A DNA stretch of 64,000 nucleotides, from assembly GCA_963770565.1 (NCBI GenBank), contig CAVYQE010000010.1, forward strand, positions 161,822 through 225,821, read 5' to 3'. Each line of letters starts with the position of its first letter. Position 1 is the first letter of the stretch. Position numbers and translations under genes: made by a program. Positions 6,218 through 55,040 of the stretch are shown here, in pieces. Under the pieces are notes generated by a model, which saw nothing but the letters and a program-made list of their open reading frames with translations, was not told the origin of the DNA and made no database searches. The DNA is from an uncultured Actinomycetota bacterium (lineage in GTDB: Bacteria; Actinomycetota; Actinomycetes; JAFAQI01).

Positions 6218-6562
6218 ATGGCTGATCGAGTTCTGCGCGGCAGCCGGCTCGGCACGACGAGTTACGAGACGGACCGCAATACGGACCTTGCGCCGCGGCG
6301 CGAGGTCGTCTACGACTGCCTGAACGGGCACGAGACTCGGATGCCGATGGCGGTGGACGCCGAGCTTCCGGCTACCTGGGAGTGCCGCACCTGCGGTGCG
6401 ACCGCTCAGCTTCGCGACGGCGAGGTGCCGGCGCAGCGAGCCGGCAAGCCGGTCCGCACCCACTGGGACATGCTGCTCGAGCGGCGCTCGCTCGACGACC
6501 TGGAAGACGTGCTCAACGAGCGGCTGGCCGAGCTCCGGCCGCGGCCGCGCAAGTCCGCCTGA
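6218..6562 (+). CDS. rbpA: RNA polymerase-binding protein RbpA
   Basis: MADRVLRGSRLG..SYETDR, WEC..CG, RTHWDMLLERRS..LE.VL.ERL; AGGAGG RBS. Confidence 0.96.
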   Translation: MADRVLRGSRLGTTSYETDRNTDLAPRREVVYDCLNGHETRMPMAVDAELPATWECRTCGATAQLRDGEVPAQRAGKPVRTHWDMLLERRSLDDLEDVLNERLAELRPRPRKSA

Positions 6563-6594: not shown

Positions 6595-8181
6595 CTACTG
6601 GGTCGCCACCGCTCGATTCGTCTCAGGGGTCGAGTAGAGGTCGAGACCTGGTTTCGCTTGTCCGGCATGACGTCGTACCAAGCCGAGGACAACGGCAAGC
6701 AGGCCCAGTGCGCTGAGGATCCACTCCGGCCAGGGGCCGACCCGGTCCGCGATCGTCAGCGGGTCGCGCAGCGGCAGCCGCCGATCGAGATACGCCGGGG
6801 CAAACACCGGCGTTCTGGCCAGGACCTTGCCGTTCGGCGCGATCATCGCGCTCACCCCACTGGTCGCCGCCACGACCACCGCGCGGCCGTGCTCGACCGC
6901 GCGAAGCCGGGAGATCGCCAGCTGCTGTGCCGTCTCCCCGCCGTTGCCGCTGTCGCCGACGTGCTCGTACGAGGCGTTGTTGGTCTGCACCACCAGCAGC
7001 CGGCCACCGCCGGTGATCGACTGGCGGACCACCGCGTCGTCGGCGATCTCGAAGCAGATCGTGTCACCGATCGAGGTGCCGTCGATCGCGAGCACGCCCG
7101 GCCGATGGCCGGGCACGAAATCCTTCGCGATCAGCTTGAACTTCGGGAACAACCGGGTCAGCACGCCGCGAAACGGCAGGTACTCCCCGAACGGCACGAG
7201 GTGGCGCTTGATGTAGATCTGGCCCGGCCCGGTCGTCGGTGACCACACGAAGCCGGCGTTCTGGACATGGGTCGGGCCGGGTCCGTCGAGGACGGCGCCC
7301 ACCAGGATCGGGACGCCGACCGCGGCGGCCGCAGTGTCGATCTCCGAGCGCGACTCGGCGTCCACCCTGGGGTCGAGGTCATCGGAGTTCTCCGGCCAGA
7401 TCACGAAGTCCGGCCGCGGCGCCGCGCCGGCCGCGATCTGCCCGGCCAGCACCTCGGTCTCGGCCAGGTGGTTGGCCGTGACCGCGTGCCGCTGGGCGAA
7501 GGCGTCGAGCCCGAGCCGCGGCACATTTCCCTGCACGGCCGCCACCACCACTGACGACGGTGCTCCCCCGCGCGACGTGCCGCCGGTCGGCAGCTGGATC
7601 GCCAGCGGCGCAAGGACCACGACGGCGATCCCGGCCACCGCGGCCACGCTGCGGATCGACAGCCGGACGTTCACCGCCAGGTAGGCCAGCGCTCCCCCGC
7701 CGAGCGCCACCGCGAAGGTCACCAGCGGCGCTCCGCCCAGGGCCGCGAGCCGGACCAGCGGGCCGCCGGCCTGACCGAACGCCAGCCGGCCCCAGGGGAA
7801 GCCGTCGAAGGGCACCCGGTCCCGCAGGAACTCCTGGCCGACCCAGACCAGCGCGCTCGTCAGCGGCCACCACCGGCCCCGGAGCACGGCCCGAAGTGCG
7901 GGGGCCAGCCCGAGGAACCACAGCGACTCGATCACCGCCAAGCCGAACCAGGCATCCAGGCCATAACCGCGCAGGAAGCTCAACAGGGGCACCCACAGGC
8001 CCAGCCCGAACAGGTAGCCGTACATCGCGGTCGAGCGCCAGCTCGGCGCCCCCCGGAGCGTGAGTGCGAGCCCGGCAACCCCGACGATCCCCGCCGGCCA
8101 CCAGCCGAGCGGAGGGAACGAGGTCCAGACGGCGAGGCCCGAGAGCAGGGCGGCGCCACACCGGGGAATGTGTCGGATCAC
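6595..8181 (-). CDS. lnt: Apolipoprotein N-acyltransferase
   Basis: Multiple TM segments, FDGFPWGRL, VQGN, IWPENS, KRHLVPFGEY, ICFE, QTNNA, LRAVEHGR. Confidence 0.95.
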   Translation of the reverse strand: MIRHIPRCGAALLSGLAVWTSFPPLGWWPAGIVGVAGLALTLRGAPSWRSTAMYGYLFGLGLWVPLLSFLRGYGLDAWFGLAVIESLWFLGLAPALRAVLRGRWWPLTSALVWVGQEFLRDRVPFDGFPWGRLAFGQAGGPLVRLAALGGAPLVTFAVALGGGALAYLAVNVRLSIRSVAAVAGIAVVVLAPLAIQLPTGGTSRGGAPSSVVVAAVQGNVPRLGLDAFAQRHAVTANHLAETEVLAGQIAAGAAPRPDFVIWPENSDDLDPRVDAESRSEIDTAAAAVGVPILVGAVLDGPGPTHVQNAGFVWSPTTGPGQIYIKRHLVPFGEYLPFRGVLTRLFPKFKLIAKDFVPGHRPGVLAIDGTSIGDTICFEIADDAVVRQSITGGGRLLVVQTNNASYEHVGDSGNGGETAQQLAISRLRAVEHGRAVVVAATSGVSAMIAPNGKVLARTPVFAPAYLDRRLPLRDPLTIADRVGPWPEWILSALGLLAVVLGLVRRHAGQAKPGLDLYSTPETNRAVATQ

Positions 8182-8255
8182 TACCGATCGGACGGTATCA
8201 ATCGGGCCGCCCGGAACGGGTCACAACCGGATCACGTCGCCGTCACGCCAGGCGC

Positions 8256-8338
8256 GAGAAAGGCCCGGGTGCCCTTCGGACCGCCGCGATGGCGACCGGC
8301 CGTCGCCGTGGCGGCGTTGTCTACTGGGCACCCGGGCC
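8256..8338 (-). terminator. Terminator-like or processing stem downstream of the candidate ncRNA
   Basis: Perfect 13-bp inverted repeat (8262-8274 / 8326-8338) enclosing a second hairpin (8282-8316), followed by TTTCTC on the minus strand. Confidence 0.45.
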
Positions 8339-8502
8339 ACTCCCGAGTAGCCGCACCACGCCCGGGGTGCCTCAGCGCCGACGGGCCGTCGACCAACTGG
8401 ACCTGGCACCTGCTCGGCGCCGCGGGTGCACGCGGACTGCCGACCGGCCAGCTGGGTTCTCCGGTGTCGGACCGAGGACGCTCGGGCGTCCCTGTGGTGG
8501 AC
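8319..8502 (-). ncRNA. Candidate ~184-nt structured non-coding RNA
   Basis: Promoter TTGACA(8540-8535)-N19-TAGTTT(8515-8510), inferred +1 at G8502; nested complementary segments form a long rod; no credible ORF. Family not identified. Confidence 0.55.
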
Positions 8503-8768
8503 GCCAGGCAAACTAGCGGTATCCCCCGGGAGGCTGTCAACCGCCCTCTGACCTGCGGAAACGCACGAAGCCGCAGGTCAACGCCATGATCGATGATCAT
8601 CAAAACCTTGGGCCCAACCTGATCGGAGCAACGCCGGCACCCGCCCGGGTCGGAGGCCGGCCGCTGCACCCGCGACCGGTCGCTCCGCGGCCGACTCGAC
8701 CGTACGACGAGCCGAGGCCCAGTCAGTCCGCTTGTATGCTCCTTGATCTCAACCTAAGGTCGAGAGTG

Positions 8769-9209
8769 TTAAAGCGCGAGCGGCCGATCTTCGTAAGGCG
8801 TGGAAAGCACCACTGTGGTCCGGGTGGACACGTTGGCGGCCGCGCGGATCTCCTGCAGGAGCAGCTCGAGGTCGGCCGGTGAGCCGGTCCGCACCTTCAG
8901 GATGTAGCTCTCCTCCCCCGCAACGCTGTAGCAAGCCTCGATCGCACCGAGATGGGAGAGCCGGTCGGGAGCGTCGTCAGGCGCGCTGGGGTCGATCGGC
9001 TTGATCGAGACGAAGGCGGTCAGCGCCAGGCCGAGTGCGACCGGGTCGGCGATCGTGCGATAGCCGCGCAGCACCCCACGCTGCTCGAGCCGGCGTACCC
9101 GTTGGTGCACAGCGGAGACCGAAAGCCCGGTTTCCCGGGACAAATCGGTAAAACTTCGGCGGCCGTCCTGGCTCAACAGCCGGACAATTGCGCGGTCGAC
9201 GTCCTCCAC
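8769..9209 (-). CDS. Lrp/AsnC family transcriptional regulator
   Basis: DRAIVRLLSQDGRRSFTDLSRETGLSVSAVHQRVRRLEQRG HTH; CYSVAGEESYILKV effector domain. Confidence 0.95.
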   Translation of the reverse strand: MEDVDRAIVRLLSQDGRRSFTDLSRETGLSVSAVHQRVRRLEQRGVLRGYRTIADPVALGLALTAFVSIKPIDPSAPDDAPDRLSHLGAIEACYSVAGEESYILKVRTGSPADLELLLQEIRAAANVSTRTTVVLSTPYEDRPLAL

Positions 9210-9608
9210 GAACGCAAACCTTAGGGCATCAACGCGCGAAGCTTGCGAAATTTACGTTGACGGGTACGGCGGGGACGCCACGCTGCCCACCATCCTCGAA
9301 TGAACGAGGATGAACGAGGCGTGCCCCGCCGACCTGTCCAGGACCGTGCGCATTGAGTGCTCCCGCCCACAGGGCTGTTACGCCCACCGGCCGGGTCGGT
9401 CTCGCCACTCACTCCCCGAGCAACCTAGGCGACCGTTTGTCTCCGTGCCCCCGGCGCGCGTAAACGCGCCAAGCGCCGGTGAGGGCCGCTCGGATCACCG
9501 TGTCCCGTATGTCCCCAGCGGTTGCTGGTGACAACTACCGATTCGACCGCTCCGTCCGACGGCTTGAGTCGGCGTGCGGGTGAGCGCGAATCGGCTAGTG
9601 ATGGGGAC

Positions 9609-54955: not shown

Positions 54956-55040
54956 GTCGGAGTGGCGGAATGGCAGACGCGCTAGCTTGAGGTGCTAGTG
55001 CCCTCTTATGGGCGTGGGGGTTCAAGTCCCCCCTCCGACA
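54956..55040 (+). tRNA. tRNA-Leu (anticodon GAG)
   Basis: Acceptor GTCGGAG/CTCCGAC, anticodon arm CTAGC-TTGAGGT-GCTAG, long variable arm, T arm GGGGG-TTCAAGT-CCCCC; CCA not encoded. Confidence 0.97.

Follow-up and report, generated by a model that had tools for sequence, protein, structure and literature searches.

The stretch of DNA analysed here, called the window throughout, comprises 64,000 nucleotides (nt) of contig CAVYQE010000010.1 from an uncultured actinomycete (GenBank assembly GCA_963770565.1), and the subject of this work is the 587-bp gap that separates lnt from an upstream regulatory gene of the lrp/asnC family in high-G+C actinomycete DNA. From the letters of the window alone, the gap had been proposed to hold an orphan rod-shaped RNA with a promoter of its own near rbpA, read as a candidate 6S-like RNA polymerase (RNAP)-binding RNA. 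As far as a comparison of sequences can tell, the locus encodes a real, strongly conserved and highly structured non-coding RNA with its own promoter, and the gap holds the only copy in this genome of an RNA family found widely in the class Actinomycetes. The genes that frame the RNA are:

6218-6562, plus strand: rbpA (PF13397 at 145.3 bits over window positions 6227-6538), convergent with lnt
6595-8181, minus strand: lnt, encoding apolipoprotein N-acyltransferase (Pfam LNT_N at 9.1e-27, plus CN_hydrolase), in the same orientation as the RNA and 73 nt past its 3′ hairpin
8769-9209, minus strand: lrp/asnC-family regulator (Pfam HTH_AsnC-type and AsnC_trans_reg), upstream of the RNA and on the same strand

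The nearby rbpA had been named correctly in the original prediction, as had the lack of a credible open reading frame (ORF) in the gap: the two long ORFs (8232-8669, minus strand; 8170-8589, plus strand) matched no Pfam family and are merely frame-filling. An alignment with relatives revealed a conserved block at approximately 8262-8604 that covers the promoter, the upstream repeats and ~240 nt of transcribed sequence; the flanks of the gap toward lrp and toward lnt showed no conservation in this alignment. Taken as a whole, the 329-nt stretch has a fold z-score of −2.78 relative to shuffled sequences.

A DNA search with the gap sequence gave matches in 26 of 41 related genomes. An exact pattern built from the two most conserved strings found at least 120 contigs in a species-level genome collection, and the counts of named loci given below refer to the 120 named loci among the matches listed. 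These include Micromonospora, Actinoplanes, Plantactinospora, Phytohabitans, Nocardioides, Marmoricola, Streptosporangium and Nonomuraea, and further Sphaerisporangium, Microtetraspora, Nocardiopsis, Parafrankia, Protofrankia, Phytoactinopolyspora and metagenome-assembled genomes of Jiangellales. When 151 genomes sampled evenly from the class were searched with a covariance model of the hairpin, 104 were positive (102 of 149 of high quality; 69 of 96 genera), and each positive genome had a single copy, except for one weak second match and one duplicate on two contigs. The genomes G040, G032, G048, G053 and G059 are included in these tallies, and their sequences were kept out of the alignments. 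The RNA is much more widespread than originally implied. One genus was positive in all seven of its genomes, and the RbpA of one member is identical at 122 of 124 positions to PDB chain 8hvr_G. Since entry 8hvr is from Streptomyces coelicolor, the RNA very probably occurs in Streptomyces. No match to the RNA was found in viral contigs and plasmids, and a mobile origin was rejected.

Neither Rfam 15 nor the searchable literature appears to list the family. For the RNA, no Rfam 15 family reached its gathering score in the comparison of the whole window, and none was credible at E≤10 within 8100-8850, be it 6S or an unrelated known family; the top scores of this comparison in the window were far under the cut-offs (AS1726, 19.3 bits versus 50; a snoRNA, 17.5 versus 35). 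Likewise, no family was matched at E≤0.05 in five homologous 10-kb loci. The searchable literature held no paper that prints the sequence of the motif, although tables of small RNAs (sRNAs), supplements or subscription papers may hold the RNA under another name. Nor did it mention any RNA located upstream of lnt or ppm1, any actinobacterial motif linked to lnt, or scr1422-scr1425 as sRNAs, the lone match to scr1422 being a cryo-electron microscopy paper on complex I.

The RNA is about 248 nt long (8255-8502, minus strand) and consists of two domains. It is larger than first described; a length of ~184 nt had been proposed, and the 5′ end pairs with 8350-8357 instead. The parts are as follows, from the 5′ to the 3′ domain:

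8350-8502 (153 nt), minus strand: 5′ domain, an imperfect rod closed by P1 in the predicted fold
8496-8502 with 8350-8357, minus strand: P1, GUCCACC with GGUG(C)GAC, one bulged base
8394-8454, minus strand: apical part of the rod, P2/P3; CUGGCC (within 8443-8452) pairs with GG(U)CCAG, and the conserved GCCAGGUCCAG lies at 8397-8407
8255-8345 (91 nt), minus strand: 3′ hairpin of ~30 bp, the universal core
8326-8338 with 8262-8274, minus strand: basal stem of the hairpin, 13 bp plus a 6-bp extension (linker CGGGAG with the T-rich tail)
8317-8325, minus strand: 5′ strand of the hairpin module, with AGUA (8325-8322), GAC (8321-8319) and an AA bulge (8318-8317)
8275-8282, minus strand: 3′ strand of the module, with GGUC (8282-8279) and then CGAA (8278-8275) opposite AGUA

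From base to tip, the hairpin is built of the basal stem, the 4x4 internal loop AGUA/CGAA (which we take to be S-turn-like), GAC/GUC, the AA bulge, a covarying upper stem and a seven-base apical loop with the consensus YNNCCRR. Its internal loops are the most highly conserved parts. The invariance of the module within the set of 130 sequences is partly forced by the exact search pattern; UAGACAAC was also retained in 10 of 10 matches that were found by the model rather than by the pattern. Similarly, 7 of the 25 hairpin pairs fall inside the search pattern, so that their constancy is forced, and the covariation comes from the other stems. The covariation looked for among the homologous regions of relatives is clearly present: in the 130 hairpins, the covariation score is 0.406 compared with 0.180 in shuffles (reached by 0 of 500) and at most 0.154 with the pairing partners slid, and 87.3% of the cells are paired compared with 73.6% in shuffles (again 0 of 500). 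Changes on both sides were seen at 18 of the 25 pairs. Many pairs are G-U, for example in 62 of 130 sequences at one pair, which on the opposite strand would give C-A, and with the full model the minus strand reaches 216 bits and the plus strand 48 bits; the RNA strand is therefore the minus strand. Pairing that is preserved through compensatory change, and on a single strand, marks the element as a structured non-coding RNA. The invariant A of GAC may make a non-Watson-Crick or a protein contact.

As a variation within the module, the U facing the A of GAC is a C in the Streptomyces-type loci L206 and L208 and an A in L212; L215 alters CGAAGG as well.

The rod behaves differently from the hairpin in that its sequence and length vary while its pairing is kept. 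The nested pairings that had been proposed for it are exact in the window (8483-8489 with 8358-8364, 7/7; 8471-8477 with 8370-8376, 7/7; 8466-8470 with 8378-8382, 5/5; 8448-8454 with 8394-8400, 7/7; 8431-8435 with 8420-8424, 5/5). The poorly paired region proposed between them (8455-8465 versus 8383-8393) pairs at only 1 of 11 positions in register, as foreseen, but the minimum free energy fold has 3+2+1 offset pairs there. The pairing of GUCCAC with GUAGAC (8319-8324), thought to close a 184-nt unit, is possible at 5 of 6 positions, but the conserved structure is a different one and GUAGAC is the invariant 5′ strand of the 3′ hairpin. In the alignment of 20 relatives, P1 is paired in 98.5% of the cells yet almost invariant, and covariation thus neither supports nor contradicts it. 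Three pairs of P2 are changed on both sides in the same relatives, and in 79 of 132 loci the GCCAGGUCCAG string or CCAGGnnCAG precedes the hairpin motif by 80-88 nt. The arms between P1 and P2 cannot be aligned in sequence, yet they co-evolve: native pairs of arms fold at a mean of −42.1 kcal/mol, compared with −34.0 kcal/mol (standard deviation 4.4) for chimeras, and of 20 candidate 3′ arms the native one came out best for 10 of the 20 5′ arms and among the top three for 15. Global alignments of distant homologs to a full-length model were gapped and of little help for the 5′ domain, and they were left out. Across homologs the length of the rod ranges from 0 to 186 nt, with clusters at 44-55, 109-124, 127-149 and 151-157 nt; the short rods are those of four loci with 44-55 nt, one with 39 nt and one with 0 nt. 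The original description as a rod-shaped RNA with a promoter of its own is borne out by the compensatory change in the arms and by the conservation of TTGACA described below.

Two further observations concern the fold. The 5′ GUCC (8496-8502) has two possible partners, 8481-8487 close by, which gives a small hairpin at the 5′ end (GUCC...GGAC), and the distal 8350-8357; in the predicted folds both options persist in several lineages, hinting at alternative structures. A tertiary contact between the apical loop and the 5′ domain was considered and rejected, as native complementarity averages 5.27 nt and that to foreign loops 5.65 nt.

At the start of the RNA and upstream of it lie the following elements:

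8502, minus strand: probable transcription start, the G of GUCCACC, placed from the position of the −10 hexamer
8510-8515, minus strand: −10 hexamer TAGTTT (TAnnnT type), separated by a 19-nt spacer from the −35 hexamer
8535-8540, minus strand: −35 hexamer TTGACA, invariant in 20 of 20 relatives and present in 100 of 109 listed named loci
8550-8579, no strand assigned: inverted repeat GACCTGCGG-N12-CCGCAGGTC, ending 10 nt upstream of the −35 hexamer
8586-8600, no strand assigned: inverted repeat ATGATC-N3-GATCAT upstream of the promoter, largely kept in the window's family (20-locus alignment), a possible operator

The promoter, TTGACA-N19-TAGTTT with a probable +1 at G8502, is present as originally read and conserved in relatives. 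It appears to be of the primary-sigma type; it belongs to the RNA and is conserved together with it. Promoters were tallied in the 109 listed named loci with 330 nt of upstream sequence; among the 100 that have TTGACA, 74 have a TAnnnT at a spacing of 16 nt (37 loci) or 19 nt (37 loci). A generic promoter scan, which needs a spacer of 16-18 nt and at least 4/6 in the −10 hexamer, did not flag the site at 8510-8540. The GACCTG of the 8550-8579 repeat is invariant in 20 of 20 relatives. A repeat of this type occurs in 24 of the 100 listed loci with TTGACA, with the 10-nt gap to the −35 hexamer fixed in 23, and a recognisable copy was seen by eye in 9 of 10 further genomes. This GACCTG...CAGGTC arrangement, ending 10 nt before the −35 hexamer, is found in the window's family, in Nocardioidaceae-type loci, in Jiangellales and in the probable Streptomyces, and at one Streptomyces-type locus both halves are changed symmetrically. 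The repeat may be either an operator or an upstream hairpin. Only five sites of it exist in the whole genome, compared with one for a reversed control, which is uninformative on a regulon.

A strong conserved promoter in front of a mostly double-stranded rod of ~150 nt, whose arms vary yet co-vary, and a co-oriented protein gene downstream are features shared with 6S RNA (SsrS, RF00013), and the original prediction had gone on to suggest that the rod mimics an open promoter. The broader reading, a 6S- or Ms1-like RNA that binds RNAP, the primary sigma factor or RbpA by mimicking promoter DNA, can further draw on the lasting linkage to rbpA, which is found downstream at 35 of the 42 loci whose flank extends to 4.5 kb or more and adjoins the RNA directly where lnt and ppm1 are gone. 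Adjacency to rbpA alone is a weak argument, however; the rbpA-ppm1-lnt linkage is an old synteny. Moreover, there is no match to the 6S model of Rfam at E≤10 or to any other model, and no large conserved central bubble: in the predicted 5′ domains of 111 of 121 homologs, the shorter side of the largest internal loop does not exceed 3 nt, and in the window it measures 2 nt. Some homologs dispense with the rod, as its lengths show, and the conserved core is a separate 3′ hairpin without a counterpart in 6S RNA. A relationship to 6S RNA is hence not supported by the sequences. Of the original proposal, a real non-coding RNA gene with a conserved promoter that is absent from Rfam 15 has stood; the 6S-like mimic has not, and the broader reading of an RNA that binds RNAP, the sigma factor or RbpA we regard as very unlikely.

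Ms1 deserves separate consideration. Like Ms1/MTS2823/scr3559, the RNA described here is an actinobacterial RNA in the range of ~230-300 nt with several hairpins, a wide distribution and a conserved position, but that position, between lrp and lnt/ppm1 near rbpA, is a different one; the two are set apart by locus and not by sequence comparison. The published text defines Ms1 by its synteny with an HAD-IB hydrolase and an oxidoreductase, gives 419 nt for the Ms1 gap, and reports neither Ms1 nor its synteny for Frankiales and Geodermatophilales (PMC9130861). In the present genome, the HAD-IB hydrolase genes are on other contigs and two of them pass the cut-off (the second at L155). The conserved 400-nt block beside one of them, tried as a candidate for Ms1, proved to encode a protein on the opposite strand, having GGAGG and ATG at its end and gap-free, codon-like conservation, and no gap of the Ms1 type was found there. 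A vacant Ms1 niche is therefore conceivable, a point in favour of an Ms1-like role. In the probable Streptomyces, the RNA lies at 1.71 Mb and HAD-IB genes lie at 2.14, 4.67, 4.85 and 5.05 Mb; the one at 4.85 Mb is flanked by gaps of ~415-430 nt and resembles an Ms1 locus. The RNA therefore coexists with an Ms1-like locus there and is not its replacement, and identity with Ms1 was rejected on the different flanks (lnt and lrp) and the distance between the two loci. In addition, the text available of an RNA immunoprecipitation sequencing study in S. coelicolor names only scr3559 and scr0792 as RNAP-associated and no RNA as strongly bound to HrdB (PMC11077062).

In the same genome (G000, contig C1), a 6C RNA (64.7 bits; L156:2234-2308) adjoins an HAD-IB hydrolase gene; the conserved block on the opposite flank of this hydrolase gene is a small protein gene and not an Ms1-type RNA. 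A second RbpA-family gene is present outside the window (G000:C1:1541276-1541593; 95.4 bits).

The 3′ end of the RNA bears on how it is made. An intrinsic terminator was considered and rejected: the T-rich run past the basal stem of 13 bp forms pairs with the linker CGGGAG, a generic scan found no terminator, and after the full stem the T fraction is 0.163, not enriched over the background of 0.154. As the hairpin is not followed by a U tract, transcription probably continues into lnt or ppm1, an arrangement that we take to be like that of ssrS-ygfA. This is where a second explanation enters, namely that the RNA is a cis-acting 5′ leader of an lnt/ppm1 envelope operon, in which the hairpin, with or without the 5′ domain, binds a protein or a small ligand and sets read-through, processing (for example by RNase III on the long stem) or mRNA stability. 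A structured lnt leader had been the fallback of the original prediction, and it is still a live rival, which we consider possible though tentative.

The downstream genes were tallied in the 100 listed named loci whose downstream flank measures 1.2 kb or more; the other 20 of the 120 have less and were dropped. An lnt gene follows within 800 nt on the same strand in 72 loci and a ppm1-like GT2 gene in 14 (Pfam check of three). In seven others the distance to lnt is 894-4237 nt, and several of these have further ORFs in the interval. In two loci rbpA converges directly on the RNA, in two Frankia-group loci the first match to lnt, ppm1, rbpA or lrp downstream is a convergent lrp, and three loci have no recognisable lnt, ppm1 or rbpA. 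Among the 10 further genomes, lnt follows the RNA in nine. In the probable Streptomyces a GT2-sized ORF follows it; lrp is upstream of the RNA in two probable Streptomyces loci, too. The loci at which rbpA converges on the RNA, L100 and L079, have lnt on another contig of the same genome, and their RNA is still single-copy and high-scoring (93.4 and 71 bits). At L093 and both Frankia-group loci, the gene that comes first downstream, for an amidohydrolase or an MFS transporter, is convergent. Altogether, at least five loci lack a co-oriented downstream gene and keep the RNA and its promoter intact.

Assembled contigs of four soil RNA libraries match parts of the locus, one library over only 36 nt; no start, end, strand or level can be read from them, and carry-over of DNA is possible. 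Those from two studies, belonging to close relatives, cover 8326-8493, 8393-8497, 8311-8470 and 8319-8456, and those of a third study, with less than 90% likeness, cover 8263-8359 and 8493-8598. None of the contigs covers lnt (7900-8181) or lrp, but a gap in cover carries no weight here and is not used as evidence. The contigs that reach 8493 and 8497 lend weak support to a start near 8502, and the presence of 8311-8497 in RNA libraries is weakly in favour of an independent RNA.

We give a probability of about one in two to the reading that the RNA is an independent protein-docking RNA that is usually co-transcribed with lnt/ppm1. Several findings weigh against it. A co-oriented lnt or ppm1-like GT2 gene within 800 nt in 86 of the 100 listed loci is leader-like. 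Some loci have a spacer to lnt that could not hold a separate promoter; in L092 the lnt alignment begins 97 nt after the start of the motif, and L081 is reduced to promoter, hairpin and lnt, with the promoter 57 nt before the motif. The missing U tract weakens the case for a discrete 3′ end, and the relative's contig at 8493-8598 spans the promoter region, so that the start at 8502 is not clean. The uncoupled loci belong to few lineages, and L100 and L079 possibly represent one event. Every RNA-bearing genome of the class sample has lnt, and the eight genomes without lnt are all RNA-negative; lnt is present in 143 of the 151 genomes and the RNA in 104, so this phyletic link does not discriminate. 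On the other hand, seven loci have lnt at a distance, 39 of the 143 lnt-bearing genomes have no RNA, no expression platform is visible, the spacer from the hairpin to the start codon of lnt is unconserved and variable in length, and the predicted ~30-bp hairpin is very stable, which makes switching unlikely. A function of its own is favoured over that of a leader because of the uncoupled loci, the unconserved spacer and the conservation of loops within a helix too stable to switch.

Compared with orphan leader or riboswitch candidates, of which the Rfam lnt and raiA motifs are presumably examples, the RNA shares a large conserved structure mostly just upstream of one class of genes, but it lacks an Rfam match, a multi-stem junction containing conserved unpaired bases and an expression platform; at some loci a downstream gene is missing as well.

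According to the independent-RNA reading, transcription would begin near 8502 on the minus strand from the RNA's own promoter and would probably read through into lnt or ppm1. The transcript would fold into two domains, a lineage-specific rod, variable in sequence and length with its pairing kept, and the very stable 3′ hairpin, whose module would be the docking site of a conserved actinomycete protein. The RNA would then function in its own right, in trans or in the form of a ribonucleoprotein, with the rod as lineage-specific scaffold. That a docking site rather than a mere terminator is assumed follows from the position of most conserved bases in the internal loops of the hairpin. A bolder version, in which the RNA is a subunit of a so far unrecognised class-wide actinomycete ribonucleoprotein and the module docks a protein of transcription (RbpA, sigma factor, RNAP) or of envelope biogenesis, is doubtful. 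If true, it would give actinomycetes, in addition to Ms1 and 6C, a third type of RNA that acts as a global regulator, and would tie the expression of lnt/ppm1, that is, lipoprotein acylation and the supply of mannose lipids, to the docked partner.

The module also recalls a known protein-binding RNA. The hairpin strand GGUCCGA followed by AGG, which pairs across bulges with the GAC strand, resembles the conserved Ro-binding helix of Y RNAs; it differs in that the module is reversed relative to the RNA ends and that no Rfam Y_RNA match is listed. A Y RNA/Ro system was rejected, since the TROVE domain (PF05731) was found in 1 of 41 genomes, which is not the present one; the DNA search described above had found the RNA in 26 of its 41 relatives; the Deinococcus control was found.

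The conserved bases of the hairpin are formally unpaired, and could in principle serve for base pairing: AGUA, CGAA, AA and the CC of the apical loop would be seeds for distant mRNAs if the RNA were a regulatory sRNA. Class-wide actinomycete sRNAs act through conserved loops, 6C RNA being the case in point. In the predicted structure, however, the invariant bases are in the internal loops of a very stable helix and not in accessible loops. The complement of UAGACAAC occurs on the RNA's strand in 0 of 130 loci, the scan being local with no genome-wide search for targets, and complements of GUCCGAAGG occur five times on that strand in the 130 loci, at unrelated places. We therefore consider a base-pairing sRNA very improbable.

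The non-coding RNAs known to be shared by actinomycetes at large are few, chiefly tmRNA, RNase P RNA, SRP RNA, 6C and Ms1, and a single-copy, promoter-bearing RNA of 100-250 nt in about two-thirds of the sampled genomes adds to them. Its neighbours, which serve lipoprotein maturation and the synthesis of polyprenol-phosphate-mannose, together with rbpA, matter for envelope integrity and antibiotic susceptibility; S. coelicolor mutants in ppm1 (sco1423) are reported to be hyper-susceptible to antibiotics. Whether trans-acting or a leader, the RNA would fill a gap in what is understood of RNA-based regulation in this phylum, which is not known to have Hfq.

The window holds three more RNA elements. 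A c-di-GMP-II-GAG riboswitch aptamer (9385-9514, minus strand; Rfam, 48.4 bits with a gathering score of 40) lies just upstream of the lrp/asnC gene on the same strand, and given this match the regulator may be under cyclic di-GMP-type control. Tandem glycine riboswitch aptamers (Rfam, 62.9 and 40.2 bits) are at 694-898 on the plus strand, and a tRNA gene (Rfam, 55 bits) is at 54956-55040, also on the plus strand.

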